Shown: one piece after another, positions 3,195 to 62,864 of the stretch | Position numbering within the stretch: position 1 is the first letter of the stretch | Layout of the letters: the number at the start of each line of letters is the position of its first letter | DNA from: Moorena sp. SIOASIH | Lineage (GTDB): Bacteria > Cyanobacteriota > Cyanobacteriia > Cyanobacteriales > Coleofasciculaceae | NCBI RefSeq assembly: GCF_010671925.1 | Contig: NZ_JAAHIH010000001.1 | Span: forward strand, 549,053-613,052 | Direction: 5' to 3' | DNA length: 64,000 nucleotides | Notes under the pieces: model-generated | Database searches by the model: none | What the model saw: the letters and a program-made list of their open reading frames with translations, nothing else | Told to the model about the DNA's origin: nothing | Made by a program: the position numbers and the translations under genes

Positions 3195-3207
3195 TTTTAG
3201 GGTAAAG

Positions 3208-3419
3208 GTAAGCATTCAGCTATCAGCTATCAGCTTTCAGCTATCAGCTTTCAGCTATCAGCTTTCAGCTTTCAGCTATCAGCTTTCAGCTTTCAGTCAT
3301 CAGTTTATGCGCTACGCGCACGCTACCCGAACAGCTTTTGAATAAAATAAGCTGACCGCTGACTACTGACTACTGACTACTTACGGCTGACCGCTGACCG
3401 CTGACCGCTGACTGCTTAA
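3208..3419. mobile_element. MITE-like palindromic element. It starts with GTAAGCATTCAGC, has (CAGCTAT/CAGCTTT)n at the 5' end and (GACTACT)/(GCTGACC)n at the 3' end, and its internal core is shared with the other copies.
   Basis: The 13-bp terminus is identical to the TIR of copies at 12578, 29837 and 61578. It contains the internal motifs TGCGCTACGCGCACGCTAC and TTTTGAATAAAATAAGCTGAC. The 3' terminus is degenerate (GCTGACTGCTTAA). Confidence 0.6.
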
Positions 3420-3436
3420 AAATAAGGATAGAAATT

Positions 3437-3793
3437 ATGTCAATCAAAGTCTACGGTATCCCCAACTGCGGAACCTGCAAAAAAGCATTTAAATGGCTGG
3501 AAGATAACAGTATTGAGTATGATTTTATTAACACTAAAGAGCATCCACCAACTGCAGAGATGATTAGCAGCTGGGTGGATGCGTTGAGCTCTAAACCCAT
3601 GCGTAATACTTCTGGGAAATCCTATCGTGAAATAGGTGAAGAAAAAAAGACTTGGACCGATGAGCAGTGGGTTGAAGCCTTTGCCAAAGATGCGATGCTG
3701 CTGAAACGACCCCTATTTGTGAAGGATGGCACAGCGGTATTGGTAGGGTTTAGGGCAAATGAAGAGACGATACGAGAAAAATTGGGACTATAG
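3437..3793 (+). CDS. ArsC/Spx/YffB-family protein (arsenate-reductase-like thioredoxin fold)
   Basis: 118 aa with the N-terminal motif VYGIPNCGTCKKA and family-typical size. Confidence 0.75.
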   Translation: MSIKVYGIPNCGTCKKAFKWLEDNSIEYDFINTKEHPPTAEMISSWVDALSSKPMRNTSGKSYREIGEEKKTWTDEQWVEAFAKDAMLLKRPLFVKDGTAVLVGFRANEETIREKLGL

Positions 3794-3887: not shown

Positions 3888-4072
3888 CTTCGGATCAGTA
3901 ACAGAGATTAAACTAATGCTTACCTATTTTCTTAAAAAGCTGACAGCTGACCGCTGATAGCTGTTCGCTTAGCGTGCGCGTAGCGGATATGCTTACAAAT
4001 TATCAAACTATCAAAGCGATAAAAATTTTATTTTAGGATAACAGGTACTCAAAAGCAGTCAATTTTCTTACC

Positions 4073-4163
4073 CCTACTCCCTACTCCCTACTCCCTACTC
4101 CCTACTCCCTACTCCCTACTCCCTACTCCCTACTCCCTACTCCCTACTCCCTACTCCCTACTA
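4073..4163. repeat. STRR-like heptamer repeat (CTCCCTA) x13
   Basis: Thirteen perfect units immediately upstream of the 4200 ORF. Confidence 0.95.
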
Positions 4164-4199
4164 TAGAATAAACAACATTGCAAACTATCGAGCCCAAGG

Positions 4200-5741: not shown

Positions 5742-5903
5742 CATTTGAGTTTAAAGGGAGCAGGGAGCAGGGAGTAGGGAGCAGGGGGAAGAGTGTCAGG
5801 ATAGGGAGAAGAAGTAGTTGGGGAGAATTTGGTATCTTTAAATGCATTGTCTTGATGCAGCCGCTCATAGTGGAAACCACACCACTTGCTCCCCACCCTC
5901 CTC

Positions 5904-5975
5904 ACTCCCGACTCCCGATTCCCGATTCCCGACTCCCGACTCCCGACTCCCGACTCCCTACTCCCTACTCCCTGT
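5904..5975. repeat. STRR-like heptamer repeats (ACTCCCG/ATTCCCG/ACTCCCT)
   Basis: Directly visible. A related GGGAGCA tract lies at 5755..5795. Confidence 0.9.
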
Positions 5976-8900
5976 TCACGGATCACCAACTAGCAGGAAA
6001 GCAGCCCAATAATAGGGATGCGTAAAGCTTTGTTTTCCAAATCCTGACAATTCTGAGGATAAAGCAATTTTCTTGCCAGAGCTATATAAGTGATCATTCT
6101 CGATCCGGACATTGCCTCGAATCATTGCCAACTGTGCCTGTCGCAAGGCTTCAGTTTTACTCGGTGTCTTGTTCAACTGACGGTAAAACTCTGTAGTCAG
6201 CCCCATAGCCCCTTGGTCACTGACAGACCAAAGGGTTGCTAGAGTGGAGTCAACCCCTGCCTGAAACGCTGATCCAGCAAAACCTAACTCTGCTTCCCGA
6301 TTTCCCAAAGCCGTTTGGCAAGCGCTGAGTACCAACAACTCTACTGATGGCTCATAAAACAGATTTTCCAGTTCATCGAGCCCCAGTTTTTTGTCCCACA
6401 TTTGAATATAAGAATTTTCAGGAGCTCCTCGATTAAACTGAGCATGGGTAGCTAAGTGAATGATGCCAAATTTCCGCTTTTTTCGTTGAGCCTTTAAATT
6501 TTCCAGAGTGAAGCTTTCGTTGAGAAAATAGTTACCTTCCCACAGTTTTTTGTCGATAATTGTTTCTAACTCGACTTTTACCCAAGGCAAATCCTCTTTA
6601 TCAGAAAATTGGGAGGCTCCCATCGCCAGCAGTCGCAAGGATTGAACATTGCTAAACCGAGAATAGGTCAAACTAAGGCTAGGCACCAGGCTGACACTAT
6701 AATTTTCTACTAGATAGTTCTTTTGATCGTGCAGAGCAGCCAGGGGTAGAGAGCGCAAACCCTGATCCATGGCAAATATCAGGCTCTCGATCTTATTAGC
6801 TTTTAACTCAGACTCCAACGGTCCGATCAGCCATTGGTAAAGTTGCTGAGCTGCTTTGAGATGATCCTTATCATCCAAGTTTCGGGGATTTATCAGTGTT
6901 CGATGAAAAGTCCTGGTCACAGCTAGGACTTCAGCACGATTGGCGTTATAGACTCGCCGCAGAATTGGATTACCGTCTGCTTTGATCAGCAACAGTTCTA
7001 GCTGGTCATCGCTTTGTTGTAAGCATTTTTCCGGTTCTGAAGGTAGATCAGAGGTTCGGTAACCAAATCGTCGGTCAATTTCGGCTGCTGGGATTGCCGG
7101 AGTTTGGCATCGCGTTCCTGGCAATGTCAGGGAGTTTTGGACAAAACTGACATAAATAACCCCAGTCTTGAGACCCTTCTCCCGCTCAAGCTCACGAATG
7201 CGATCGCGCACATCATTCTGAGTATAAATTTTGGTCTTGAGCTGTCGCAGAAAGTATGCCTGATATTCTTCTGTGAAGGCTTTTTCTATGCCATACACTA
7301 GGTCACTTTTAACGGTCGCCTCTAGTGTGATTGGTTGCTCTACCGGTGGTGGAACCTCTGGTGGTGTTATTGATGAGTTATCCGGTGTGGGGATTGTTGA
7401 GTCTACCTGTGGTGAAACTGCTACATCCTTCTGTACTACAACCGTTACATAATCTGGCGCTAGGACTGTAACATCATCCGGTGGTGTAACCGTTGAGTCA
7501 TCGGGTGGTAGGACTGTAACATCATCTGGTGGTGTAGCTGTGCCATCATCCGGTGGTGTAACTGTGCCATCATCCGGTGGTGTAACTGTGCCATCATCCG
7601 GTGGTGTAACTGTGCCATCATCCGGTGGTAGGACTGTAACATCATCCGGTGGTGTGACTGTGCCATCATCCGGTGGTGTGACTGTGCCATCATCCGGTGG
7701 TGTAACTGTGCCATCATCCGGTGGTGTAACTGTGCCATCATCTGGTGGTGTGACTGTGCCATCATCCGGTGGTGTAACCGTTGAGTCATCCGGTGGTAGG
7801 ACTGTTACATCATCTGGTGGTGTAACTGTGCCATCATCCGGTGGTGTAACCGTTGAGTCATCCGGTGGTGTAACCGTTGAGTCATCCGGTGGTGTAACCG
7901 TTGAGTCATCCGGTGGTGTAACCGTTGAGTCATCCGGTGGTGTAACCGTTGAGTCATCCGGTGGTGTAACCGTTGAGTCATCCGGTGGTGTGACTGTGCC
8001 ATCATCCGGTGGTGTGACTGTGCCATCATCCGGTGGTGTGACTGTGCCATCATCCGGTGGTGTACCTGTGCCATCATCCGTTGGATCTCCCGGATTAATA
8101 CTAATCTCTCCTCCTGTACCTTGGATAGCATCTAACCGTGAGTTAGATGCTATTTGTGCTCGTATTGCTTCTACATCAGTTTCGCTAGTAATGTCAGGAG
8201 CGAAGACTATGATATCACCACCATTCCCACTCCTCTGAGCTTGTGTGTTGATATCAATATCATCAAAGTTAACATTGTTTGAATCTGGAACATTAAAGGT
8301 TATGTTACCAGAATCACCACCGTTTGATGCCTCGGTAATAATTCTGAGAGTCTCACCATTTACCTGAATGCTTCCCTCTGCAGTTTCCAAGGTTACATCA
8401 CCAGAATTACTACCCCCTGTTTCTGTCGTCCTGATCGTGGTAATAATCAAACCATCATTATTACGGAATATAATGTCATCTTGAGCTGATAAGATTACAG
8501 GTCCAGCATCACCCTGATCAGAACTCGTGTCGATATTACCAATAGTGATACTCCCTTCAGATGAATTCTCTTCGAGATTAGAGAATTCTGTTCCCTCTAC
8601 GGTGACTGATTGATTAGGATCAAGATTAACTGGATTACTCAATTGATCCTCACTCAAACCTGCTCGCAAAATCAGAGAGCGGCGTTGGGTCAAATTCTCA
8701 AAATCTGGATCTGAAGTGGGAATCGAGCCAGTGGTATCTGGCTGTGTGATCTCGATATTTCCCCCCTCAATACTTCCGGTAGACTCTACTTTCAGAGAAG
8801 CTCCTGTATAATCCCCAAAGATGACATCGCCTCTAGAGATAATAATCGGGTCATAGAAGCTCAGAAAATTACCTGGTTTACCAGATAAATTCAGAATCGA

Positions 8901-21917: not shown

Positions 21918-22358
21918 AAGACAGATAGGGCAGTGGTTAGTGGAGAGTAAATACAGATTGCTCAAATTATTGTTAGGAATCAATTGTAGGAATCTTTGAC
22001 ACTCCCATCGCTAAATCCTTCGCGCAGCGTCGGCTTTGCCGAATATTATAGCCAAGGATTCTTAAGAGAATAAAACTCTTAATGGCTGAGCCAAACAGCC
22101 TCGCTTACCCTCCAATAAAATTATTGGGCTTACTTTTGAGATTTTTGATTTATGCTTTTAGCAGAGGCTTTTCAGCTTGCGCACAAACCTGCACCTTTTA
22201 AGTGCATTAATATGTGTTTATCTTAGCAAAGATTCTCAAAAAGCGCAACAGATTCAGTCTCCAAGTCCGCACTTTATACGCCCCGTCTCCCGCTAACCCT
22301 TACTGGCAGTGCCAGACGCTGCTTAATACGGGTATAACGGGAGGGGAATTGGAGTTGA

Positions 22359-23267: not shown

Positions 23268-23384
23268 TTCTTCTCCCTAGAGCCTTAGCCCTAGGCCCGT
23301 GTTACCCTTGCCAACGGAACGCGGGAAGATGGGGAGATGGGGAGATGGGGAGATGGGGAGAACCCCCAAGACAGCGCTGCATCG

Positions 23385-23436
23385 CTACTCCCTACTCCCT
23401 ACTCCCTACTCCCTACTCCCTACTCCCTACTCCCTC
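23385..23436. repeat. STRR-like heptamer repeat (TACTCCC)n. An (AGATGGGG)4 array lies just upstream at 23326..23358.
   Basis: Directly visible. Confidence 0.9.
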
Positions 23437-23448
23437 AATTGAGAACTA

Positions 23449-26400
23449 CTAAAAGCCATTGCCAATCATAATAAACGGTGCCCAGTAATAAGGACTATTA
23501 TAATGACTGTTGATCAAGCCTATTTGCGCTTGACGCAATGCTTCCGCTATGGTAATATTACCCTTAAGCATGGTTTGGTAAAAAGCATCCATTAGTACCT
23601 GTGTCCCTTGGTCATCAACAGACCAGAGGGAAGCGATGGTTGCTAGTGCTCCTAAGCGTTGCATCTGATAACCAAAGCCTAAAATTTCTTCACCATTACC
23701 CAAAACTCCACCAACACCAGTTTCACAAGCACTAAGCACCACTAAATTCACACCATTGAGGTTCCAGGTTTCTAAATCTCGGAGCGTAGCCAGCTCGCAA
23801 TTACCAAATAAGATAAATGAATCCTCTGGTTGACCTGGTAAAAAAGCAGCATGGGTGGCTAGATGAACAATATTGTAGTTGTTATTGTTGTTGTTGATCT
23901 GCTCAACTATAGTGCTAGGTTTAAAGTCTTGTTGAAACAGTTTTGTAGTCTCCGGAATCAGAGCTGCAATAGTTTCTACTTCAACACCAGCAAACCTTAA
24001 GCCAGAAAAGTTAAACGGACGTTTCCCTAACTGGAATTCACATTCCCCTGAGGTAAAGGCAGCAGATAGTACCCGGGGTTGCCTAGGAAGGTGATTATTG
24101 AGGTTAATGAAACTAGCAGCAGTAATAGTATTAATACTATAGCGCTCAACTAACCATTGCTCCCCATCATGGAGCGCAGCCAGAGGAACATAACGCAATA
24201 TACCATCTGGAGCATAGAGGATAGTTTGAGCTTGGGCTTTAGTAAGGTTGTCTTCAATGGGCTTAATTAGCAAGTTATAGAGTTTTTGTGCCTCTGCTCT
24301 GGCCTGATTGACTCTAATCCTATCAGTGATGGCGCGACGGAATTTTGCGATCACATCCTTGAGTTGTTCGTGATTGATCGTTACCGAATGATGGATAGGG
24401 AATGAGTCAGCAGTAACCAGTACCAGTTCCAGACGGTCTTCTAGAATTAGCGGATACAACAACACAGCGTTTTGCTCAAGCTGGCGCAAGCTATTTTGCA
24501 AAATGTCTAGATAACTGACATCCAGACGCTGTTCTCTGGCTTGTCGTCTTAGCTGTTGCACCAGTTTCACCACATCAGGACTGGAGATAAATTGCTCAAA
24601 TGATGGGCTACTATCTTGGGACTCCGTCCTCTTGAGTAGAGAATTAATCCTGTTGCTAATCCCCTGTTCCAGAGACAGCAATCCAATCCCTTCGAGTGTC
24701 TGTTCATTGCCTTGGACATTACCCAAGTAATCCTCTAATTCTTGAATTTTCAGCAAATCCAGCACTCGTTGAGCTTCAATCACTCGGTCAAATTGCAGCA
24801 ATAGGTCAGCGAGATGACGATAGGTATTAGCAACAGTTTGTGTAAAGGATTGCTGTTGTTCTTGAGGAAGTGGTTTTAACTCGTCCCGAATCTGTTCAGT
24901 CAGATTAACCGATAACTTGTAGAAAATGATGGCTAACTCAGGTTGCTTCTGTTTTTCCAGCACTTGACCGATATTGCTGAGAGTAATTCCTTCCGCTGAA
25001 CGGTCACCGATATCTCGAAAAATTACCAAAGCTTCTTGCAGCAATGCCATGGCTTGGGAATCTTGATCTGTATTAACATAAGTACCTGCAAGAGAGTTGA
25101 GAATCCGACCCTCCCCTGCTATATCACCAATCTCTTGTGCGATCGCTAGGGCTTGCTGATAAGAATTTATCGCCTTAGGATACAGACCAATACTGGAGTA
25201 AACACCACCAATCTGATTGAGAGTATTACTTTCACTGATAAGATTATTAATATCTTGAGCAATGGCTAAAGCTTGCTGATAGGATGCTAAAGCTTGGGGA
25301 TACTGATTGAGGCGTTCGTAAATGACACCAATACTGCTAATAGTCAGTCCAACCCCTGATTTATTGTCTATCTCCCGATAAATTGCTAAAGCCTGTTCCA
25401 AAAAATCTAAGGCTTTGGAGTACTGTCCTAAACCTTCATAAACACCGCCAATATTAATGAGCGTCTTCGCTTCACTAGCTGGATTACCGATTTTTTTATG
25501 AATCGCTAAAGCTTGTTGATAATAGTCTAAAGCTTGGTAATATCGACTACGATTATAGTAAACTCCACCAATAGTATCAAGAGCATTAGCTTCCCTGGCG
25601 GGATTGTTAATTTCAGTAGCAATAGTTAAAGATTGCTGGTAGGATGTCAAGGCTTGATCATACTCTCCGAGATTTTCATAAACGGTGCCAAGGTTGTTAA
25701 GGGTATAACTAACACTATCCTTATCTCCTAACTCATTAAGAATAGCCAAGGCTTGTTGATGATACTCTAGCGCCTGTGTATAGTCACCAGTCTGACCAGC
25801 AATCAATCCTAAATTATTATAAATTCGTCCAACACTTGCTCGATTCCCAATTTCTCTAGCAATCACCAGTGCTTTTTGATAGAAATCCCTGGCTAGGGAA
25901 TACTCACCACTATTGTAGTAAACTCCACCAATATTATTAAGGGTGCGTCCTTCATCAAAGGGATTATTAGTTTCCCGACGAATCCCTAAAGCTTGCTGGT
26001 ATAACTCCAAAGCTTGGTCATAGTCACCCTGATTAGCATAAATTGCAGCAATATTATGCCAGGATTCCCCGATGATATCACGATTACCAATAGTGGTAGC
26101 CATCTCCAAGGCTTGCTGGTGTAACCCTAGTGCTTGAGAATAGTTTCCTAGACGGCGATAAACAAAGCCTATATTATTAAGGGTTTCTGCTTGTCCTCTA
26201 CTATCTTCTAGTTTTTGACGAATTATCAAAGCTTGCTGCAATGTGTCTAACGCTTTTGGATAGTCACTCAATCCGATGTACACTTGACCGATGTTGTTGA
26301 GAGTTGCAGCAACACCCGCTTTGTCGTTTAGTTGTCTACGAATTGCTAAGACTCGTTGATAGGTGGCTACGGCTTCACGAAACTGTCCCTGACGAAATTG

Positions 26401-29836: not shown

Positions 29837-30177
29837 GTAAGCATTCAGCTATCAGCGTGTCCCGTATCAGCTATCAGCTAATGCGCTACGCGCACGCTAC
29901 TTGAGGTGCTATCAACCATTAGCCATTGGCCTGTGGCTACCGTACTTGAGGTGCTTATGGGCTATGGGCACGCTGTCTTGATGCAGTCGCTCATGGGGGA
30001 AACCACGGCAGTTGCTCATGGGGGGAACCCCCAAGACCGCACTGCCTCCCCAAGACCGTAATGGTGCGTTTTCCGTAGGCGAATTAAATTCGCCACGGGT
30101 CGCACCTCTGCATCGCTACTTGAGGTGCTTTTGAATAAAATAAGCTGACGGCTGACCGCTGATGGCTGAATGCTTAC
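29837..30177. mobile_element. MITE-like element, 341 bp, with perfect 13-bp TIRs and an 8-bp target-site duplication AGGGAAGT. It is inserted into the 3' end of a response-regulator gene.
   Basis: GTAAGCATTCAGC at 29837-29849 and GCTGAATGCTTAC at 30165-30177. AGGGAAGT occurs at 29829-29836 and 30178-30185. The interior carries the dispersed CATGAGCGACTGC / GCGGTCTTGGGG motifs. Confidence 0.8.
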
Positions 30178-40775: not shown

Positions 40776-41864
40776 TCAACCTTCAACCAATTTGTCATTG
40801 GCTATTTTCTCTGGTAGCTGCTCAATAATGCCACCTCCGAGCACCAGCTCCCCGTCATACAGAACAGCAGCCTGTCCTGGCGTGATGCTGAATTGTGGTT
40901 CATCGAACACTAATCTGATCCGATTTCCTTCTAGAGGAATCACATTTACAGGTACAGCAGGTGAGCGATAGCGAACTTGCACAGAAGCTCGAATGGGAAC
41001 CGTAGGTTCCTGAATCGATACCCAATTGACCCGATGAACCGTACATTCAGGTTGGGTGGCTTGGTGGCGTTCCCCCACAATTACCCGATTCCTGGCTGCA
41101 TCGAGGGCAATCACATACAAGGGATTGGGAGCAGCTATACCTAGCCCTTTCCGTTGTCCAATGGTGTAGTGGTGAATTCCTTGATGTTGCCCTACCACAT
41201 TTCCATCCAAGTCCACGATGTCACCTGTGGTTTGGGAAATATACTTGTCCAGGAACTTCTGCATCGAACCGTGGGATTCGATTAAACACAAGTCCTGACT
41301 TTCTGGTTTATCAGCAGTCTTGAGATTATACTCAGCAGCAAGGCGTCGCGTTTCCGTTTTCTTCAGTTCTCCCAAAGGAAATAGGGAAGCCGCCAGCAGG
41401 TCTTGAGTCAAGTCATACAGGAAGTATGACTGGTCTTTTGTCAAGTCTAGTGCTCGCCGCAATTGATAGCGATCGCATTCAGCATCATAAGTAATCCGGG
41501 CATAGTGACCTGTGGCTATTTTGTCAATCCCCAATGTCTCACGGGCATAGGTCAGCATCGGACCAAACTTTACTGCCTTGTTGCACTGAGAACAGGGGAG
41601 TGGAGTAATCCCAGATTGGTAACCCGACACTAAGTAATCCACAATGTTTTCCTGAAAAACATCGCGACTGTCCACAATATGGTGGGGAATCCCTAATTGT
41701 TCACAGATAAACGCTGCATCGACCATTCCCTCAGAGCAGCATTGACCCTTCCCTTTCATTAACCAAAGGGTCAATCCTACAACTTCATATCCTTTGTGAT
41801 GGAGGGTGGCGGCAGCTACGGAACTGTCTACTCCGCCAGACAAGCCAACGACAACTTTATTCAT
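40776..41864 (-). CDS. mnmA: tRNA-specific 2-thiouridylase MnmA
   Basis: 362 aa with the PP-loop [10 protein letters not shown] and catalytic Cys context; overall typical of MnmA. Confidence 0.9.
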
Positions 41865-41867
41865 GAA

Positions 41868-42048
41868 ATAATTCCGGGAGTTTGGAAACCACCGACTAGA
41901 AGTCGGTGGAGGAAAAACGACTCGTGCGGTTTTAACCGCCGTGATCCCTACAGGGGGGAGTCTACTCGTTCGACGTATTGCAATCGCCTCTGGTCTAGGC
42001 AGTTATAGACTCAGGCAAACTCCCTGCACCGATAGGTTTTTTTTTAGG
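41868..42048 (+). ncRNA. Candidate structured small RNA of unknown class, ~180 nt, ending in a U-run
   Basis: A 9-bp closing helix GGGAGTTTG (41875-41883) pairs with CAAACTCCC (42017-42025). It encloses three internal hairpins: CCACCGACT-aga-AGTCGGTGG, GCGGTT-tta-AACCGC and GAGTCTA…TAGACTC. T9 follows at 42038-42047. There is no ORF. Confidence 0.3.
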
Positions 42049-42461
42049 CATTAATGCCTTACTCGGATTTCTCCGGTTAAGTTCGCTTCGCCAAAGTTAA
42101 AGGTCGGTACTTTCCACAGCACACTGTCTTACCCCTCGTAAAACTGTTTAATGCTGCGGTTCTAGAGCTGGGAACTAGCGACGTATTCCCAGGTAGGAAC
42201 TTCAACACTTACCGATAACGTAGTCCTCAAGGGACTTAGGCTGGTCAGCTATCTAAAGTTCGTTGGGCATCATGCCCAACGAACTTTAGAGCGGGGTGCT
42301 GACCAACTCAACAGATTTCTCCCTGAGGGAGGTATTGCATTGTATAGTATTATTGTAGTGCTCCTGACCCTTAAGTCCTTCTACCTTAAGTCGAGTGGGC
42401 AAAGTGGGATTTCACTCCTATCCTGGAATCATAGAGTATTACGATAACTCTGGGAGTATCA

Positions 42462-42836
42462 GTGTTCATGGCTGGTTTTGGAAATTTGGTTCAAAAAGCG
42501 TTTTATCTAGGCGTCGGTATAGCTGCTGCTGCAGGGGAAAGAGCTGGGGGAACCTTGTCAGAAGTGCGAGGTCAAGCTCAGAAACTGGTAGATGAACTCG
42601 TAGAAAAAGGGGAAATGACTACCGAGGAAGCCCGTAAACTGGTTGAAGATTTAGTGCAACAGGGGCAACAGCAATCCTCTCCAGCTAACCCTAATGATCC
42701 TAAACCTGAGCCGCGCCGGATTGAGATTATTACTGATGAGGAAGAAGAATCAGCACCACCCGAAGAGCAGGATGTTGACAAACTACGCCAGCAGGTGCAA
42801 GCTATGCAAGAAGAATTGCGTCGGCTAAAGCGCTAA
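42462..42836 (+). CDS. Phasin-family / PHA-granule-associated-like small protein
   Basis: 124 aa. The N-terminus is hydrophobic, a coiled-coil-like segment follows, and the C-terminus is acidic and Pro-rich. Confidence 0.4.
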   Translation: MFMAGFGNLVQKAFYLGVGIAAAAGERAGGTLSEVRGQAQKLVDELVEKGEMTTEEARKLVEDLVQQGQQQSSPANPNDPKPEPRRIEIITDEEEESAPPEEQDVDKLRQQVQAMQEELRRLKR

Positions 42837-55773: not shown

Positions 55774-56799
55774 ATGAAACATGTTTCTGTCATTATTCCC
55801 GTCTACGGAGTTGAAAACTATATTGCAGCAGCGGTGCAGTCTGTTCTCGACCAGACCTATACCAACTTTGAACTGCTCATTATTGATGATGAATCCCCAG
55901 ACAGTAGTATAAAAATTTGTCAAGAATTCTCGGATCATCGAATTAAGATTATTCATCAAACTAATCGGGGACTTGCTGGAGCGCGCAATACAGGAATTCG
56001 CCATGCCAAAGGAGATTATTTAGCGTTTTTAGATGGGGATGACTTGTGGTTGCTTCAGAAACTGGAAAGACATATTGAACACTTAGAAAAATTTCCAGAG
56101 GTAGGGGTTAGTTTTAGCCGTTCAGCATTGATTGATGAATCTGGAAATTTATTGAACACTTATCTAATGCCTAAGTTAAAGGACATTACCCGATCAGATT
56201 TATTCCGGTCTAGTCCTATTGGTAATGGTTCAGCTCCCGTAATTCGACGGGAAGTCTTTGAAGCCATTAAGTATCAAGATAACCTTTACGGCACTACAGA
56301 ATATTTTTACTTTGATGAAAACTTCCGCCGCGCTGAAGATATTGAATGTTGGCTACGTATTGCGATTCAGACAGACTGGAAAATTGAGGGAATCCCTGAA
56401 GCACTAACCCTATATCGAGTCAATTCAGCCAGTCTTTCAGCGAACTTAGTCAAACAGTTGGATTCGTGGAAACAAGTACTAGAAAAAACTCGCTCCTACG
56501 CTCCTGAATTGATTGAGAAGTGGGGAAATTTAGCCCTGGCCTATCGATTGCGAAACTTTGCTCGTAGTGCAGTACGTCTCAAAGATGGACCAATGTCTGT
56601 CAAACTAATTAATGGTGCTTTGGCAACTTACTGGCGTCTTCTCTTGGAAGAACCAAGCCGTACCCTTCGGACTTTGGTTGCTGCCTATTTACTTTTGCTG
56701 TTGCCTAAGCCCCTATATTCCCACCTCGAAGTTCTCGCTGTTAAAGTAGTGGGAATGATCCAAAGACGTCAGATTTGGCAAGACCAACTTGGACAATAA
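55774..56799 (+). CDS. Glycosyltransferase family 2, paralog A
   Basis: MKHVSVIIPVYGVENYI…LIIDDESPD…GLAGARNTGI…FLDGDDLW. Confidence 0.85.
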   Translation: MKHVSVIIPVYGVENYIAAAVQSVLDQTYTNFELLIIDDESPDSSIKICQEFSDHRIKIIHQTNRGLAGARNTGIRHAKGDYLAFLDGDDLWLLQKLERHIEHLEKFPEVGVSFSRSALIDESGNLLNTYLMPKLKDITRSDLFRSSPIGNGSAPVIRREVFEAIKYQDNLYGTTEYFYFDENFRRAEDIECWLRIAIQTDWKIEGIPEALTLYRVNSASLSANLVKQLDSWKQVLEKTRSYAPELIEKWGNLALAYRLRNFARSAVRLKDGPMSVKLINGALATYWRLLLEEPSRTLRTLVAAYLLLLLPKPLYSHLEVLAVKVVGMIQRRQIWQDQLGQ

Positions 56800-56834
56800 T
56801 TGTCTTAGTCATTCAGTATAGGATGGTTGATAAA

Positions 56835-57860
56835 ATGAAAAAAGTTTCCGTCATTACTCCAGTCTACAACGTTGAGAAGTATATTGCTGCTACAGTACAG
56901 TCAGTTTTGGATCAAACTTACCAAAATTTTGAATATTTGCTCATTGATGATGGTTCTCCTGACGACAGTGTAGAGATTTGCCAGCAGTTCATAGACCCCA
57001 GAATCAAAATTATTCGTCAGGAAAATCAGGGAGCTAATGCAGCAAGGAATGAAGGCATCCGCCAAGCCGAGGGAGAGTATTTAGCATTTTTAGATGGCGA
57101 TGACCTATGGTTGCCTCAAAAGCTAGAAAAACATATTGAACATTTGGAAAAAAATCCAAACTTGGGGATTAGCTTTAGCTGTTCTGGGTTTATCGATGAA
57201 GCAGGAAATCCCCTAGGAATCTATCAACTACCCAAGCTAAAGGACATCACCATCGGTGACATAATTTGCCGTAATCCTATTAGTAATGGCTCCTGTGCTG
57301 TGTTCCGCAAGCAGGTATTTGAAGCCATTAAGTACCAAGAGACTATCAACGGAAAGACCAAAGACTTTTATTGGGATGAGGGATTGCAAGGGTCACAGGA
57401 TTTGGATTGTTGGTTTCGCATTGCTATCCAAACCAATTGGGACCTGGAAGGCATTCCTCAGTCTTTGACTCTATACCGAGTCAATTCCAGTGGTATATCA
57501 GCTAACTTGTTCAAAAAACAAAAGTCTTGGGAACAGGTAATTGAGAAAACTCGCTCTTATGCTCCTGATGTGGTGGTTGAGTGGGAAAATCGTGCCCGTG
57601 CTTACCATTTGAGGTATCTAGCTCGTCGTGCAGTTACCTTGAGAGATGGTGCAATGGCTGTCCAATTCTTCAACCAAGCTCTGGGGAGCTACTGGCAGAT
57701 GCTCTGGGAAGAACCACGTCGTACCCTGTTAACTGGGGCTGCGGCCTATTTGCTCTGGCTTATACCTCAGAATCTTTACAAGCATATAGAAGCTTTAGCT
57801 TTAAAAACCACAGGGTCTTCACAACAGCGCCGGATTTCTCAAGCAATCCGAGGGACATGA
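56835..57860 (+). CDS. Glycosyltransferase family 2, paralog B
   Basis: MKKVSVITPVYNVEKYI…LLIDDGSPD…FLDGDDLW. It is collinear with paralog A throughout. Confidence 0.85.
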   Translation: MKKVSVITPVYNVEKYIAATVQSVLDQTYQNFEYLLIDDGSPDDSVEICQQFIDPRIKIIRQENQGANAARNEGIRQAEGEYLAFLDGDDLWLPQKLEKHIEHLEKNPNLGISFSCSGFIDEAGNPLGIYQLPKLKDITIGDIICRNPISNGSCAVFRKQVFEAIKYQETINGKTKDFYWDEGLQGSQDLDCWFRIAIQTNWDLEGIPQSLTLYRVNSSGISANLFKKQKSWEQVIEKTRSYAPDVVVEWENRARAYHLRYLARRAVTLRDGAMAVQFFNQALGSYWQMLWEEPRRTLLTGAAAYLLWLIPQNLYKHIEALALKTTGSSQQRRISQAIRGT

Positions 57861-57924
57861 AATGTCATCTATTAGCAAATAGCTAAAGCCTTGCTACCAT
57901 GCTGGTTTTTGGGCGTTGCTGAAT

Positions 57925-58090
57925 CTTTGAATGAATAGGAGTAGAGTGGGCATCCTGCCCGCTCGAAAATATATTGAAACTGGCAAGATGCCAGTTCTAC
58001 CAAGATGCCAGTTCTACCAAGATGCCAGTTCCACCAAGATGCCCGTTCCACCAAGATGCCCATTCTACGGCAAGATGCCCATTGCACAAA
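57925..58090. repeat. Second, inverted copy of the dispersed module: conserved spacer plus a (CAAGATGCCAGTTCTAC)n array of 6 units
   Basis: It is the reverse complement of 559..690. Confidence 0.8.
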
Positions 58091-58156
58091 ACTTTTAAAA
58101 TCATTCCATTATTAAGCAACGCCGGTTTTGGGGTAATGGGTCATAGGTCTGCCAAT

Positions 58157-58247
58157 TACCCATTACCCATTACCCATTACCCATTACCCATTCCCGACTC
58201 CCCACTCCCCACTCCCCACTCCCGATTCCCCACTCCCCACTCCCGAC
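58157..58247. repeat. STRR-like heptamer repeats (TTACCCA)5 then (CTCCCCA/CTCCCGA)n
   Basis: Directly visible. Confidence 0.9.
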
Positions 58248-58903
58248 CCAAATGTAAAAAACCTACCCCTGTGAGCACAGCCCCTCTCCATTCGCGACGG
58301 CATCAAGACAGTGAAATTAGATATTTTGTTAGTTGTAGCTAATTGTAAAATTTCTGTCTAGTAATTGTGAAATTTCTGTCTAGTTTTGATAAATCCTATA
58401 TCTGGCTAGACAGTTTTTTTGTTGCTATAATTTTTAATTATGATATACTTCTATAAAGTCTGGTTTGATCGCTTTTATATAAGCTGACAGGGATGGCATC
58501 TTGAAATCCTGATATTGCTTAATTGCCTACTTTTGACGTTCACTGTCTTATCTAGCTGTCGTATATACTAGCAATGCTACCGGAAAATATATTATACAAT
58601 TAAACAAAAATTGATAACTATAAAACTATAAAACAAAAACTAAGAAAATTTATCTGGGGGGCGACCAGCGCCCCAAAGTACTTGCCAGCTTGAGGTTTAA
58701 GCTTACAGTGACTTCTAAACTATACATAGACCCAACTATACATAGACAAAAGAAGCATAGTTTGAATTATTGAGAACTCAATCCCTGATTAGTTCGTCCA
58801 AGTTTAAGAAAAATCGGGTTGATAATTTTGGTAAATTAATTACCGAAATCTCTACCAGATAATACTTATAGCTAACCTATCACAACCTCATAAATTTTAG
58901 CCT

Positions 58904-59917
58904 ATGAAAACTGTTTCGATAATTATCCCAGTATACGGAGTTGAAAAGTATATTGCTAGCGCAGTACAGTCGGTTATCAACCAGACTTATCAAAACTTTG
59001 AACTGCTGATTATTGACGATGAATCTCCCGATCAAAGTGTAAACATTTGTCGGGAATTATCCGATACCAGAATTAAGATTATTCACCAAACTAATCGGGG
59101 ACTTGCTGGAGCGAGAAATACAGGAATTCGCCATGCCAAAGGAGATTATTTAGCCTTTTTAGATGGAGACGACTTGTGGTTGCCTCAGAAACTGGAAAGA
59201 CATATTGAACACTTAGAAAAATTTCCAGAGGTAGGGATTAGTTTTAGCCGTTCTGCATTGATTGATGAATCTGGAAATTTTATGGGTGCCTATCTAATGC
59301 CTAAGCTCAGTAATATTACTATATCTGATTTGTTTCGAGAGAGCCCGATCGGGAACGGTTCGGCTGCTGTAGTTCGTCGGGAAGTCTTTGACACAATTAA
59401 GTATCAGGATAATCTTTACGGCCCTACAGAAGATTATTACTTTGATGAAAACTTCCGTCGTGCTGAAGATCTTGAATGTTGGCTTCGCATCGGTATTCAA
59501 ACTGAGTGGAAAATTGAGGGAATACCTGAAGCACTAACCCTGTATCGCATTAATACACAAGGGTTGTCAGCCAATCTCTTCAAGCAGTTAGAGTCCTTGG
59601 AAAAAATGATTGAAAAGACCCGTTCCTATGCTCCCACAGTAACCAGCCAATGGGAAAAGATTTCTAGGGCTTACCACTTGCGGTACTTGGCTAGGAGTGC
59701 GGTTCGTCTTAAAGTAGGTTCAGATGCTGTGACCTTTATACATCGCTCATTATCCAATCACTGGCGTATCCTACTAGAACAGCCACGGCGAACAATCTTA
59801 ACCTTAATAGCCGCTTATATGCTTTGGTTATTACCAAAGTCTTTATATGCTCAAATTGAATTGCTTTTCTCTAAGCTGCTTAAAAAGGTTAAAAAACAGC
59901 CTCTTCTCCAAAACTAG
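58904..59917 (+). CDS. Glycosyltransferase family 2, paralog C (closest to paralog A)
   Basis: MKTVSIIIPVYGVEKYI…; long runs identical to paralog A (RIKIIHQTNRGLAGARNTGIRHAKGDYLAFLDGDDLWL). Confidence 0.85.
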   Translation: MKTVSIIIPVYGVEKYIASAVQSVINQTYQNFELLIIDDESPDQSVNICRELSDTRIKIIHQTNRGLAGARNTGIRHAKGDYLAFLDGDDLWLPQKLERHIEHLEKFPEVGISFSRSALIDESGNFMGAYLMPKLSNITISDLFRESPIGNGSAAVVRREVFDTIKYQDNLYGPTEDYYFDENFRRAEDLECWLRIGIQTEWKIEGIPEALTLYRINTQGLSANLFKQLESLEKMIEKTRSYAPTVTSQWEKISRAYHLRYLARSAVRLKVGSDAVTFIHRSLSNHWRILLEQPRRTILTLIAAYMLWLLPKSLYAQIELLFSKLLKKVKKQPLLQN

Positions 59918-59998
59918 TACCGCTGCGCGGAATTCAAAATTCAAAATTCAAAAACCAAAAAAATTACTTAGTTTAAGCTTTAAGGATATTGACTTATT

Positions 59999-61216
59999 TT
60001 GTTAGCTAATCAGCCATTAATCTCATTTATTGATATTGCATTTTTGCTAATAGCATTTGCCCTTATCGTTCCAATTACAGTTCTTTTGATTGAATGTAGT
60101 GCAGCAATTTTGCCTAATGCTTCTAAGCCATGGTCGGATGCTAGCAAACCCCGACCAACGATGGCTGTTTTAGTTCCCGCTCACAATGAAGCCTCTGATA
60201 TCAGTGCCACCCTCGAAACATTAATACCTCAGCTTACGGAGCAAGACCGACTAATAGTAATTGCTGATAATTGCACTGATGACACCGCAGCAGTGGCTCG
60301 GAAATCTGGCGTTATCGTAATTGAACGACAGGATCATGAGCGCAGAGGTAAGGGATATGCCTTAGATTTCGGTATGGGGTTTATTGAGCCTAATCCACCG
60401 GATGTCGTGGTGGTCGTTGATGCAGACTGTATCGTTGCTGAAGGAACGATTTCACGGATTTCCCGCCTTGCGTACGCTACACAACGACCGGTTCAGTCAA
60501 CTTACTTAATGACACAACCAGACAACCCGGTACTAAAGGATTTGATCTCTACCCTGGCGGTTAAATTCAAAAATACAGTCCGTCCGACTGGGTTACATCG
60601 ACTGGGCTTGCCTTGTTTGTTAACAGGTTCAGGAATGGCTTTCCCCTGGTCAGTGATTCGCAAAATCTCTTTGGCTGGCAGTAAAACAGTTGATGATATG
60701 CAGTTGGCTTTGGATTTAGCGATCACTGGGCATTCCCCAATATATTGCCAAGAAGCAGGAGTCACAGGTCGTCTGATGAAAGAGGCTTCAGCAAAGAGTC
60801 AAAGGTCACGCTGGGAGCATGGTCATATCGAGACTCTGCTAAACCAAGTTCCTGAGTTACTCAAAGAGTCTATTCGTCAAAGACGTTTCGACCTATTAGC
60901 GTACGCATTAGACTTATGTGTGCCACCATTGTCCCTATTGGTTCTAATGTGGGTAGCTGCTACAGGGGGAGCTTTACTCGGGGTAGCCTTGGGAGGATCA
61001 TGGATAAGTACCATTGTCTTACTCATAGAAGGGGTACTCCTGTTAATTGCGATTGTTGAAGGTTGGGCTAAGTTTTGCCGAACAGACTTTCCGATCCTGA
61101 TGCTCTTAGCTGTCCCGATTTACATTCTGTGGAAAATTCCCGTCTATCTGGCTTTTCTGGTGGAACCTCAGACCAAGTGGATTCGCACAGAAAGGGATGC
61201 AGTCGATACCCCATAA
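59999..61216 (+). CDS. Membrane-integrated processive GT2 (synthase-type; cellulose/chitin/hyaluronan-synthase-like) with a QxxRW motif
   Basis: N-terminal TM helices, then a GT-A domain (LVPAHNEA…DNCTDDT…VVVDADC) with a C-terminal polytopic region. QRSRW at ~res 267-271 matches the processive Q(Q/R)XRW signature. Confidence 0.7.
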   Translation: MLANQPLISFIDIAFLLIAFALIVPITVLLIECSAAILPNASKPWSDASKPRPTMAVLVPAHNEASDISATLETLIPQLTEQDRLIVIADNCTDDTAAVARKSGVIVIERQDHERRGKGYALDFGMGFIEPNPPDVVVVVDADCIVAEGTISRISRLAYATQRPVQSTYLMTQPDNPVLKDLISTLAVKFKNTVRPTGLHRLGLPCLLTGSGMAFPWSVIRKISLAGSKTVDDMQLALDLAITGHSPIYCQEAGVTGRLMKEASAKSQRSRWEHGHIETLLNQVPELLKESIRQRRFDLLAYALDLCVPPLSLLVLMWVAATGGALLGVALGGSWISTIVLLIEGVLLLIAIVEGWAKFCRTDFPILMLLAVPIYILWKIPVYLAFLVEPQTKWIRTERDAVDTP

Positions 61217-61239
61217 TCGTAATCAACTGATTCTACGCT

Positions 61240-61590
61240 GGGTTTGCATTCAGCTAATGCGCTACAGATGGTGCTACTTGAGGTGCTTTTGAATAAAAGA
61301 GGTAAGCATTCGTTATAAAAGAGATAAGCATTCAGCTCTCAGCTCTCAGCTCTCAGCTCTCAGCTCTCAGCTCTCAGCTTTTGAATAAGCGATGCAGCGC
61401 GGTCTTGGGGAGGCAGTGCGGTCTTGGGGGTTCCCCCCACTCGCTATTGCCGTGGTTTCCCCCATGAGCGACTGCATCAAGACAACAAGTAAGCATTGGT
61501 TTAATCTATGTTACGTCAGCACCTCTAGTAGCGTGAGCCTTGGCCATTCGCGAATGGCTGACGGCTGACGGCTGACGGCTGAATGCTTAC
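61240..61590. mobile_element. Composite MITE-like repeat region with nested partial copies. It ends with the canonical TIR GCTGAATGCTTAC at 61578-61590.
   Basis: Contains GTAAGCATTCG/ATAAGCATTCAGC internal termini, (CAGCTCT)8, GCGGTCTTGGGG x2, CCCCCATGAGCGACTGCATCAAGACAA and (GGCTGAC)3. Confidence 0.55.
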
Positions 61591-61850
61591 AGCATTCGTT
61601 TAATCTGAGTTATGTCACAGCACTTGTGGCCTATGCCACAAAGCTGATTGACTTTTACCCAGACTTTCAATTCTCTAAAATCTCTTAATATTAAATTCTC
61701 CCGTTTGCGCATCGGCGCAAACGGGAGAATGCTTACCAAAAACCTTATAGAGTAAGCTTATTATATAAGGGTTTCCCTAGTTTTGAAGACTATCTTTATT
61801 TACCTTTTGCTTTTCTAGCATGGTTAACTAATTTCAAGGTGCGAACTACA

Positions 61851-62864
61851 ATGAACAAAGTCTCGGTAATTATTCCAGTCTATAAGGTTGAAAAATACAT
61901 AGCAGCCACAGTATAATCTGTGCTCGCCCAAACCTATAAAAATTTTGAGTTGCTACTCATTGATGATGGCTCTCCTGACAAAAGTATCGAAATATGTCAA
62001 CAAATTAACGATCCGAGAATTAAAATTATTCATCAGGATAATCAAGGAGTCTCAGCGGCTATAAATACTGGTATTCGCCATGCTCAAGGAGAGTATATCG
62101 CTTTCTTAGATGGAGATGACCTCTGGGTTCCAGAAAAGCTAGAAAAGCATGTTTTGCATCTAGAAACATCACCCCATGTAGGAGTGAGTTTTAGCTATTC
62201 TGCGTTAATTGATGAAACAGGAACTCCGTTAGGAATCTATCAAATAGCCAAAACTAAAGATATAACTACAGATTATATCATGTGTCGTAATCCCATTGGG
62301 AATGGTTCAACACCAGTGATTCGGCGAGAAGTGTTTGAAGCAATTCGATACCGAAACGAGCAGGCTACGGAGGATGCTTATTTTGATACTGAATTACACA
62401 ATATCGAAGACGTGGAATGTTGGCTGCGCATGGCGATTAAAACTGATTGGCACATGGAAGGTTTGCCAGAGGCGCTAACTTTATATCGTATTCATTCACA
62501 AGGGCATTCAGCTAGTATACTCAAGCATATAAACTCTCTAGAAAAGGTGATTGAGAAAACACGTGCCTATGCTCCAGAGGTAATTGCTGAATGTGAAAAC
62601 CCAGCCCGCGCCTATTATTTACGGTTTGGTGCTCGACGTGCCCTCAGCATCAACGAAGACTTGATGGCAACAGAATTGTTTAATAAGGCTTTAGCAACTT
62701 ACTGGCGTATTTTGCTAGAGGAACCGCTTCGTACTCTGTTGACCGGGGCTGCTGCTTATTTGCTCCGACTTTTACCTAAAACTCTTTACCAGCAAATGGA
62801 AGCTGTGGCGTTAAAAACGACAGGAGCTTCGCAAAAGCGCCGAATTTCTCAGGAGCAAGCTTAG
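61851..62864 (+). pseudogene. Glycosyltransferase family 2, paralog D, with an in-frame TAA at codon 22. The position is Gln in paralogs A-C.
   Basis: ATG at 61851 reads MNKVSVIIPVYKVEKYIAATV-[TAA 61914-61916]-SVLAQTYKNFELLLIDDGSPD…. The ORF track only recovers a GTG restart at 61920. Confidence 0.7.

Follow-up and report, generated by a model that had tools for sequence, protein, structure and literature searches.

A 439-bp omega-RNA-only element, very probably derived from an ISC (IscB-type) transposon, at the start codon of mnmA in Moorena sp. SIOASIH

IscB is a Cas9 ancestor, and its omega-RNA in OMEGA systems is the HEARO RNA (Rfam RF02033). Cyanobacterial ISC1 elements have a 5'-GTCA terminus and insert at an N|ATGA target; other ISC targets are GT|GG and GT|GA (Kapitonov, Makarova & Koonin 2016, PMC4810608). 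The HEARO RNA is bounded by the right end of the transposon; its guide lies outside the element and needs transcription from outside (Meers et al., bioRxiv 10.1101/2023.03.14.532601). The same study describes palindrome-associated transposable elements (PATEs), which are IS200/IS605 derivatives that have no protein and frequently encode omega-RNAs for use in trans, and identifies TTCAT as a transposon-adjacent motif (TAM) in Geobacillus IS605-family elements.

The locus considered here lies in a 64,000-nt stretch of DNA from Moorena sp. SIOASIH, the whole of which was analysed (the window). Positions 41865-42303 very probably represent a PATE-like element of 439 bp, non-autonomous and protein-less, that derives from an ISC (IscB-type) transposon of the IS200/IS605 superfamily. 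It would be an unannotated omega-RNA-only member of the ISC/IS200-IS605 superfamily, of a kind that is already known. Directly established are the RNA family, the exact boundaries without duplication, the target motif, the end hairpins, the absence of a nuclease gene and the strain polymorphism within Moorena. On the minus strand, the order is host flank, HEARO scaffold, vestigial iscB ribosome-binding site and ATG, an interior of ~100 nt, a left end of ~85 nt, and the target ATGA. The individual features are as follows.

42304-42319, minus strand: flanking 16 nt, 5'-GAAAUCUGUUGAGUUG-3', native mnmA 5'-leader DNA in the inferred guide position (junction and empty sites)
42076-42303, minus strand: HEARO RNA (IscB omega-RNA scaffold), full length (Rfam RF02033 covariance-model match)
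42253-42289, no strand assigned: perfect 17-bp hairpin with a 3-nt loop (sequence, cmscan alignment, single-stranded DNA fold z = -9.27)
42062-42075, minus strand: small hairpin CGGAGAAAUCCGAG with a GAAA loop, immediately 3' of the region covered by the Rfam model (alignment of six copies)
41995-42051, minus strand: putative vestigial iscB start, an 18-codon stub (alignment of six copies)
41965-42012, minus strand: 48-nt core (blastn and alignment with the Coleofasciculus locus L019)
41876-42024, no strand assigned: 9-bp helix of GGGAGTTTG (41876-41884) and CAAACTCCC (42016-42024), pairing the outermost left end with the interior (folds)
41865-41950, plus strand: transposon left end (single-stranded DNA fold z = -4.09; Dolichospermum match)
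41860-41864, plus strand: transposon-adjacent motif TTCAT, reverse complement ATGAA (empty-site comparison)
40776-41864, minus strand: mnmA, tRNA 2-thiouridine synthase, 362 aa, intact (ORF list)

The RF02033 match, which runs from 42303 to 42076 and covers model positions 1-211 of 211, scores 143.6 bits against a gathering score of 83 (E = 6e-30), and thereby exceeds the HEARO copies beside intact IscB genes in a cyanobacterial MAG (L011, 131.5 bits) and in M. producens 3L (L002, 117.5 bits). As in other HEARO RNAs, this full-length minus-strand match has its 5' GUCA at the boundary and the host flank in the guide position, and its 3' end extends into the place of the iscB ribosome-binding site. 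It differs in that no IscB (RRXRR + HNH) ORF lies directly 3' of and co-oriented with it; only the aligned ATG and 18-codon stub are found. The two small 5' hairpins of the HEARO consensus are replaced by the one perfect 17-bp hairpin, which is nested in a GTCAGC/GCTGAC outer helix (42243-42303) and is the enlarged stem of the omega-RNA 5' domain. On the plus DNA strand, the same hairpin forms the subterminal hairpin of the right end, at a distance of 14 nt from the terminus. The initial annotation had recognised this perfect hairpin correctly, although its string was one base too long and began one base early, and had taken it for a separate downstream feature; it lies inside both HEARO and the transposon right end. 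The 5' GTCA terminus of HEARO is the right end in TnpA terms, and the 5' end of the omega-RNA (GUCAGC...) coincides with the transposon boundary as set by the empty sites, just as it does in L019. Since the scaffold begins at the boundary, the guide would correspond to host flank. The guide of IscB is 16 nt long.

The boundaries follow from comparison with related genomes. The segment is one precise insertion, missing in four other Moorena assemblies (L001, L002, L003 and L083), where the site is uninterrupted and reads ...GTTGAGTTG|ATGAATAAAG..., also given as ...GTTGAGTT(G/C)|ATGAATAAAG. The spacer measures 603 nt with the element and 164 nt without it, a difference of exactly 439 nt; the boundaries are unambiguous and there is no duplication. 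Relative to the empty site ...GAGTTG|ATGAAT..., the insert spans GTCAGC to ...TTATTTC, and the junctions share no base. The empty-site comparison also reveals no target duplication and no inverted terminal repeats. The N|ATGA target supplies the mnmA start codon, its ATG lying at 41864 to 41862 on the minus strand. The mnmA of the window is 99% identical to that of M. bouillonii, Pfam tRNA_Me_trans matches were obtained on the L083 orthologue, and the gene, co-oriented with the omega-RNA, is now directly downstream of the element. The L083 locus was located via the ATG-start version of the neighbouring phasin-like protein; exact-protein look-ups of the window mnmA and of the GTG-start phasin-like protein returned no record. 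The gap had been described as conspicuously GC-balanced, a remark that holds because the insert has 49.0% GC, compared with 42.4% in the native spacer and 43.8% in the window.

Among 80 related mnmA loci compared for the presence of the element, a similar one occurs at L019 alone, and there too it is a precise insertion; other Coleofasciculus-type loci are without it. This second nuclease-less element (L019:3441-4000) has the same layout and sits at the identical mnmA nucleotide. The targets of the elements considered are G|ATGAAT in the window, C|ATGAAT in L019, |ATGAAA in the Dolichospermum RRXRR element (L084), |GTGAAT in L011 and |GTGGGC in L002. As an observation in its own right, a single 164-nt spacer has received insertions from two distinct ISC lineages in one genus, and one and the same nucleotide has been hit in two genera.

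Between the ends of the element there is no gene, and the ends are homologous to those of nuclease-encoding elements, as expected of a protein-less ISC or PATE-like element; the right end is HEARO, which all copies have. No ORF of at least 30 aa occurs on the minus strand in 41865-42075. A tblastn search with three IscB proteins found no IscB coding remnant in the mini-elements; near-significant matches arose only with queries whose sequence continues through the 3' end of HEARO. Traces of the former gene start may nevertheless be discerned: in nuclease-bearing copies, the place of CGGAGAAAUCCGAG in the alignment is taken by the purine-rich iscB ribosome-binding site (GAAAGGGAG or GAAAAGGAG), and the ATG at 42051 to 42049 lines up with the start codons of IscB in L011, L002, L081 (a Scytonema plasmid, AP018266.1) and L082. 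Apart from the aligned ribosome-binding site, ATG and stub, the module has no IscB-coding similarity. A run of nine T (T9, 42037-42045) is the AAA-AAA-AAA of the 18-codon stub on the opposite strand.

The 48-nt core is 81% identical to L019:3746-3793. It consists of two small hairpins, including GTCTA..TAGAC, with one compensatory change in each (GTCTA/TAGAC versus GTCTG/CAGAC; GGCG/CGTC versus GGTG/CATC). The core and the ~100-nt interior have no homologue in the full-length IscB/IsrB elements sampled, and no further copy of the interior was found in 758 kb of compared sequence. Outside the core, the module cannot be aligned with L019, and the counterpart of the 9-bp helix there is, by eye, only a 5-bp GGTTG/CAACC.

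The left end carries two hairpins. One, CCACCGACT-AGA-AGTCGGTGG (41889-41909), has a perfect 9-bp stem and lies 24 nt from the end; the other is GCGGTTTTAACCGC (about 41923-41941; GCGG..CCGC). A 37-nt match of ~84-87% identity to the end of the L084 element places both hairpins in register and at the same distances; this match is short, with E = 2 database-wide, and is weak taken alone. The terminal ~25 nt resemble the ends of L019 and L011. A sensitive plasmid search with the module of the window and that of L019 as queries gave one weak but informative left-end match and one uninformative match. The hairpins near both ends of the element are on the same (plus) DNA strand, with single-stranded DNA fold z scores of -4.09 on the left and -9.27 on the right, and their sequences are dissimilar. 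In IS608, left-end and right-end hairpins resemble each other, unlike those of the 439-bp element.

Full-length relatives (L011, L002 and L081) consist of HEARO, then an ORF for RRXRR and HNH domains, then a tail of ~100 nt. Their HEARO sequences are 62-73% identical to that of the window, and the order of HEARO, ribosome-binding site with ATG, and tail is shared. They differ from the window element in possessing a 424-449-aa RRXRR+HNH ORF and in having tails without the window core. The resemblance in the terminal ~25 nt extends to L011 and L019, as does the RTGR target. The HEARO of L019 is 72% identical and Nostocales plasmid copies are 72-73% identical; when a plasmid database was searched with the element, the HEARO 3' half alone was matched. 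No HEARO lies upstream of the Dolichospermum L084 element, where two group II introns are found instead. The L019 element carries nested small repeats, namely 25 nt inserted into HEARO and, in the interior, a long palindrome, and a protein search with a 109-aa ORF across it found only a self match. Metagenome scans with a strict core pattern and with a 23-base HEARO subfamily motif gave 0 matches each.

Moorena genomes encode many IscB paralogues. Six Moorena protein look-ups led to nine distinct IscB loci or places, all of the |GTGG lineage and without similarity to the module of the 439-bp element; the six Moorena elements that were sampled differ from it in target and left end. Within the 64-kb window, no part of the element recurs, IscB and known TnpA are absent, and a single copy is seen.

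Among ISC transposons, ISC1-1_MA of Microcystis in particular shares with the window element the 5'-GT(CA) terminus, the N|ATGA target and the lack of both duplication and terminal inverted repeats (PMC4810608). Subterminal hairpins, non-autonomous forms and insertion polymorphism between related genomes are likewise common to ISC transposons and the window element (PMC4810608). In contrast, iscB is absent from the window element, which measures 439 bp against about 1.6-1.7 kb, and its 3' terminus is ...TTTC, compared with the ...CG reported for ISC1-1_MA (PMC4810608). With PATEs, the element has in common both ends with no gene between them, a retained guide-RNA scaffold and a presumed reliance on TnpA and a nuclease from elsewhere. 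The published statement on PATEs mainly concerns TnpB-type ends in Geobacillus (bioRxiv 10.1101/2023.03.14.532601), whereas the window RNA is an IscB-type HEARO. Further differences from PATEs are that the guide lies outside the element, that a host promoter (that of mnmA) would be needed, and that the element adjoins the mnmA start codon.

From the published mechanism of the superfamily, it may be proposed that a Y1 TnpA transposase acting in trans excised the element and inserted it in single-stranded form; the enzyme would recognise the subterminal hairpins and insert beside the TTCAT/ATGA motif. The presence of the element in some Moorena strains and its absence from others lends indirect support to such mobilisation. 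The omega-RNA probably has no promoter of its own and would be made by read-through transcription from the native mnmA promoter; if so, its 5' guide would be the 16 nt of host flank. IscB from another copy could then load the predicted omega-RNA and cut the empty site (GAAATCTGTTGAGTTG + ATGAAT) after excision, and recombination following this cut would restore the element. By the same reasoning, transcription of mnmA would pass through the element, with the transposon left end as the 5' leader of the gene. Because the N|ATGA target puts the element on a start codon, the host promoter would have to make the guide, and the transposon end would become the leader of the gene. The chance that this copy can still move and is used in trans, and is not an inert relic of recent date, is put at a little below even.

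Other readings of the locus have to be weighed against this picture. The initial annotation saw in 41875-42025 an independently transcribed, trans-acting plus-strand sRNA of ~180 nt with a 9-bp helix and a U-tail, and this now appears extremely improbable. The 9-bp closing helix and the three hairpins (41889-41909, about 41923-41941 and about 41993-42010) exist and are reproduced by the plus-strand minimum free energy fold, and 41865-42075 has no Rfam family: a permissive search (E <= 10, 41700-42600) gave nothing credible there, its other matches being spurious miRNA or lncRNA hits, mostly on the palindrome. The stretch belongs, however, to the single insertion missing at the orthologous site of L001, L002, L003 and L083, and makes up the nuclease-less interior and left end of a mobile element, at the position expected for iscB and the left end. 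Homologues of its hairpins occur in other ISC elements, either at the ends or internally: the first two match the Dolichospermum left end, and the third is common to the Coleofasciculus nuclease-less element. Nor is the plus-strand fold of 41868-42050 clearly beyond chance, being only marginally ahead of shuffled sequence (z = -1.74, with 9 of 200 shuffles folding as well); the minus strand folds better (z = -3.04). The T9 run exists, but begins 12 nt past the helix, and a consensus scan of both strands in 41700-42600 yielded 0 promoter-like (sigma-70-like) and 0 terminator-like sites; an intrinsic terminator at T9 was rejected because of this 12-nt spacer and the empty scan. The claim that the stretch has no ORF is sound as regards any credible gene, although two mechanically called plus-strand ORFs (70 and 37 aa) overlap it. 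That the interval is non-coding is upheld, and a structured RNA gene is indeed present, but on the minus strand at 42076-42303, mostly outside the coordinates proposed, and of a known family, HEARO, which includes the 17-bp hairpin that had been set apart. An Rfam match to a known family is an outcome that the initial annotation had itself named as refuting its proposal. Two further candidates were discarded. A riboswitch or cis-regulatory leader of mnmA was rejected for lack of conservation among orthologues (a similar one occurs at 1 of 80 related loci, L019, where it is also an insertion), and 41865-42075 has no Rfam match at E <= 10; a ribozyme was rejected because there is no Rfam match.

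Three readings concern the history or use of the element. That it is a composite of two events, either an unrelated small repeat nested in a solo HEARO with a left-end remnant or a recombination between ISC lineages, with the ~100-nt interior (41951-42048) as foreign filler, is considered unlikely. The lack of interior homologues in the full-length elements sampled would fit, as would the nested repeats of L019 and the resemblance of the left end to an IsrB-type element (L084) and of HEARO to IscB-type copies. Yet comparison with the empty sites shows that all 439 bp came in together, the interior occurs nowhere else in the 758 kb, and the core and HEARO are spaced equally in the window element and in L019, so that any mosaic predates both; moreover, the composite reading changes the history of the element, not its nature. 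Domestication of an ancient element, whose insertion would be older than the Moorena-Coleofasciculus split or would have been selected twice, and whose omega-RNA and/or module would serve the host (by controlling mnmA as its 5' leader, or as a guide for a co-opted IscB) with losses elsewhere by scarless TnpA excision, is quite improbable. It draws on the two nuclease-less elements with the same layout, at the identical nucleotide and co-oriented with mnmA in two genera, on the compensatory changes in a core kept at 81%, on the fully intact omega-RNA, and on scarless excision being the normal chemistry of the superfamily. Against this, the element is missing in four of five Moorena assemblies and all other loci among the 80, which would require many independent losses; the window HEARO is no nearer to L019 than to Nostocales plasmid copies; and the rest of the module cannot be aligned with L019. 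In addition, a preference for start codons already follows from the N|ATGA target combined with the requirement for transcription from outside, and L084 likewise sits at the start codon of an unrelated gene. A related proposal, that the window element and L019 form a distinct conserved lineage of guide-RNA-only ISC elements with an extra functional module (48-nt core and long-range helix), repeatedly inserted or retained at the mnmA start codon, where the guide would come from the host promoter and the 5' leader of the gene from the element, is given very little credence.

If such a distinct guide-RNA-only lineage did exist, it would represent an early step in the co-option of an IscB omega-RNA or transposon end for host gene control, and an IscB-side analogue of the TnpB-derived TldR. 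For annotation, the puzzling 600-nt structured gap resolves into a 164-nt native spacer and a 439-bp mobile element with a known RNA, whose strand is corrected. The favoured reading as an omega-RNA-only ISC element illustrates published models of ISC target choice, orientation bias and omega-RNAs acting in trans and does not change them. It provides a clean natural example, with four empty sites for comparison, of an IscB-type omega-RNA surviving without its nuclease, and of an N|ATGA target setting an element exactly on a start codon.

The intergenic region between mnmA and the divergent phasin-like gene carries a 439-bp insertion (41865-42303). The insert lacks an annotation but is of kinds already known: it specifies a HEARO/omega-RNA, belongs to the ISC transposons and is a PATE-like derivative (palindrome-associated transposable element, protein-less). 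Its boundaries follow from a comparison of intergenic regions in 80 fetched mnmA neighbourhoods, with a fourth Moorena assembly (locus L083) added via the phasin-like protein.

40776-41864, minus strand: mnmA, intact
41865-41950 (~85 nt), read on the plus strand: left end of the element, from hairpins and end homology
~42395/42396: position corresponding to the insertion point of another ISC element in M. producens 3L
from 42462/42468, plus strand: phasin-like gene, weak similarity

In M. bouillonii PNG (L001), M. producens 3L (L002), a Moorena MAG (L003) and L083, the site is empty and reads ...GAAATCTGTTGAGTT(G/C)^ATGAATAAAG... directly into mnmA (^, insertion point), so the element is polymorphic among strains. 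In the window, the 439 bp lie at this point, with GTCAGC (the HEARO start) as first bases and ...GGAATTATTTC as last. The boundaries are unambiguous, since the two junctions have no base in common; relative to the empty sites there is neither a target duplication nor a terminal inverted repeat. The spacer lengths agree: mnmA and the phasin-like gene are 603 nt apart in the window, and 603 - 164 (the native spacer) = 439. The mnmA of this Moorena window shares 99% identity with the M. bouillonii PNG gene and 97% with the M. producens 3L gene. The phasin-like neighbour (42462-42836) scores a sub-threshold 21.5 bits against Pfam Phasin (cut-off 28.8); for an identical protein in another assembly the recorded start is ATG 42468, not GTG 42462.

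On the minus strand, 42303->42076 matches the full HEARO model (RF02033) with 143.6 bits (E = 6e-30; gathering score 83), the sole gathering-threshold Rfam match in the whole 64-kb window. HEARO is the omega-RNA of IscB, the transposon-encoded ancestor of Cas9 (bioRxiv 10.1101/2023.03.14.532601). An adjacent IscB ORF is a hallmark of HEARO; here it is missing, which makes the element a nuclease-less derivative. ISC transposons, a group within the IS200/IS605 superfamily, have subterminal hairpins, cause no target duplication and are non-autonomous, relying on Y1 TnpA in trans (PMC4810608). Cyanobacterial ISC elements have a 5'-GTCA terminus and the target N^ATGA (PMC4810608), and the window element shares both, its junction being G^ATGAAT. 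Targets elsewhere are ^ATGAAT (Coleofasciculus, L019), ^ATGAAA (Dolichospermum plasmid, L084), ^GTGAAT (cyanobacterial MAG, L011) and ^GTGGGC (L002). The plus-strand sequence across the junction is TTCAT^GAAATAATTCC; plus is therefore the TnpA 'top' strand and the left end starts at 41865. The TAM is situated 5' of the left end and has the sequence TTCAT in Geobacillus (bioRxiv 10.1101/2023.03.14.532601).

The initial annotation had placed here an independent plus-strand sRNA of ~180 nt with a U-tail (41875-42025) and, downstream, a separate 17-bp hairpin. Its structures exist: the 9-bp helix pairs 41876-41884 with 42016-42024, three hairpins lie inside it, and the T9 run is at 42037-42045. 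The sRNA itself is not borne out. A consensus scan of 41700-42600 found no sigma-70-like promoter or intrinsic terminator on either strand, the T9 is 12 nt from the helix, and the fold of plus-strand RNA 41868-42050 only marginally beats shuffles (z = -1.74). The minus strand of the stretch folds better (z = -3.04), the RNA found by the Rfam scan is the minus-strand HEARO, and the proposed sRNA stretch is missing at the same site in L001, L002, L003 and L083. The perfect hairpin is real in slightly different form (17 bp with a 3-nt loop, 42253-42289); rather than standing apart, it is an enlarged stem of the HEARO 5' domain in the Rfam alignment, and as ssDNA (z = -9.27) it constitutes the right-end/omega-RNA hairpin. 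The region had also seemed GC-balanced and structured, an impression explained by the 49% GC of the insert vs 42% in the native spacer. A minus-strand transcript of 458 nt that starts with the guide and extends to the mnmA ATG would fold very stably (z = -7.45), mostly because it includes HEARO.

The remainder, 41865-42075, gives no credible Rfam match even at E <= 10. Read on the minus strand (42075->41865), it occupies the position expected for iscB and the left end. Its first 14 nt (CGGAGAAAUCCGAG) line up with the iscB ribosome-binding site in the four nuclease-bearing copies, as does ATG 42051->42049 with the start codons of those copies; what comes after this ATG is just an 18-codon stub, whose Lys-Lys-Lys is the T9 on the opposite strand. 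No further IscB coding remnants were found in the module by tblastn. As plus-strand ssDNA, the left end forms two hairpins (z = -4.09), one with 9 perfect bp that lies 24 nt in from the end and one of GCGG/CCGC. These are hairpins 1 and 2 of the initial annotation; its hairpin 3 lies in the core described below, and its closing helix joins the outermost left end to the interior. Over 37 nt, second hairpin included, the left end matches the terminus of an RRXRR-only (IsrB-like) element on the Dolichospermum plasmid. In that element each of the two hairpins is as far from the end as its counterpart in the window, and the element stops immediately before the ATGA with which the next gene starts. 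The outermost ~25 nt of the window's left end are similar to the termini of L019 and L011.

No left end resembles the window's more closely than that of the Dolichospermum element (L084:1136-2279, also L085; Dolichospermum sp. DET69 plasmid CP070234.1, ~73364-74507). Directly before the 371-aa RRXRR-only ORF of this element stand two group II introns in tandem (RT ORFs and Rfam Intron_gpII hits); the gene after the element is an HTH regulator, and no HEARO lies within 4.3 kb.

The interior (41951-42048, ~100 nt) has no counterpart in the sampled full-length elements. The exception within it is a 48-nt core (41965-42012), conserved at 81% in L019, with two small hairpins that each show one compensatory change between the two.

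Locus L019 carries another element without a nuclease, at the very nucleotide occupied in the window. In Coleofasciculus sp. C1-SOL-03 (L019:3441-4000), 560 bp comprising HEARO (131.4 bits), the core and an L011-homologous tail, with no ORF, are inserted precisely and directly 5' of the mnmA ATG, oriented as in the window; the empty sites (L017 and L018) read ...ATGTC^ATGAA. The guide-side flanks of window and L019 differ; the ATGAATAAAG side is conserved. The L019 HEARO also contains, at ~3562-3586, a 25-nt insert, CGCGTAGCGTGCGCGTAGCGCGTAA, resembling a short GCGTGCGCGTAGCG-type dispersed repeat that occurs in the window at 12624-12649, 3964-3989 and 22019-22044 (repeat families D17 and D19).

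Insertion at one nucleotide in two genera could reflect an ancient shared insertion at the mnmA start codon or recurrence. Relatedness cannot separate the two, since HEARO identities are alike (window vs L019 72%; vs Nostocales plasmid copies 72-73%) and host third-codon positions, at 48%, are saturated. Recurrence is favoured over the ancient insertion because the element is absent from four of the five Moorena assemblies and from each of the remaining loci among the 80, including all other Coleofasciculus-type ones, and because the N^ATGA(AT) target and the need for an outside promoter favour ATGA start codons of expressed genes. With 43 ATGAAT sites per 64 kb in the window, the chance expectation is, by rough estimate, not negligible.

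Full-length relatives retain the nuclease. In L011, HEARO (131.5 bits) is followed by a 424-447-aa ORF (Pfam RRXRR and HNH) and a ~100-nt tail; a Scytonema plasmid has an intact copy and a Nostoc plasmid a frameshifted one. M. producens 3L contains an independent full-length ISC element (L002, 2227-3909; HEARO 117.5 bits, 449-aa RRXRR and HNH IscB) located within this 164-nt spacer between mnmA and the phasin-like gene. It lies 93 nt upstream of mnmA, in opposite orientation and with target ^GTGG. Two ISC lineages have therefore hit this spacer within one genus.

By analogy with the superfamily mechanism, the element would be excised and inserted as ssDNA by TnpA supplied in trans. The guide of IscB lies outside the element, so that outside transcription is needed (bioRxiv 10.1101/2023.03.14.532601); here, guide and omega-RNA would be transcribed from the native mnmA promoter. 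On the minus strand, a -10-like TACAAT box can be seen by eye ~35-40 nt before the junction (no full promoter in the consensus scan). Transcription of the intact mnmA would now run through the element, whose left end would act as the mnmA leader. Protein-less PATE derivatives 'often encode omega-RNAs', necessarily used in trans (bioRxiv 10.1101/2023.03.14.532601). The omega-RNA could be loaded into an IscB made elsewhere, which would cut the scarless donor joint GAAATCTGTTGAGTTG+ATGAAT. IscB paralogues are numerous in Moorena genomes. The six sampled are of another lineage, whose left end differs and whose target is ^GTGG, and the 64-kb window encodes no IscB; any compatible partner is therefore hypothetical, and the window copy may be a recent orphan.

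Among Moorena assemblies (L086-L103), many carry a given IscB element at an identical site, e.g. just upstream of gyrA or downstream of glnA. Most of these elements share the orientation of the upstream gene, matching the published orientation bias, and the left ends of the elements are conserved (GGCGGYAATTCCCCGGAC...GTCCGCCCCCTT...^GTGG).

Other repeats abound in the window. Tandem repeats of 7-nt period (CCCTACT, TCCCGAT, CAGCTAT and GCTGACN types), typical of filamentous cyanobacteria, occur in many intergenic stretches and are very dense here:

79-152, 673-820, 1806-1953, 3192-3421, 4029-4204, 5864-6011, 11004-11165, 23347-23452 and others: 7-nt-period repeats

At 7285-8160 lies a long array with 24-nt period, 60-80% identity and ~25 or more registers, probably repetitive coding sequence. 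Dispersed inverted repeats (29974-30058 vs 61400-61484, 85 nt, 94%; 611-687 vs 57924-58000, 77 nt, 96%) and a four-copy, 300-nt family at 55774-62150 suggest other small mobile or repeated elements.

It is very improbable that the element has been co-opted for mnmA control or represents a new functional module. What is modestly new is the occurrence of an IscB-type guide-only layout in two genera, its insertion at a start codon, and its unexplained core.
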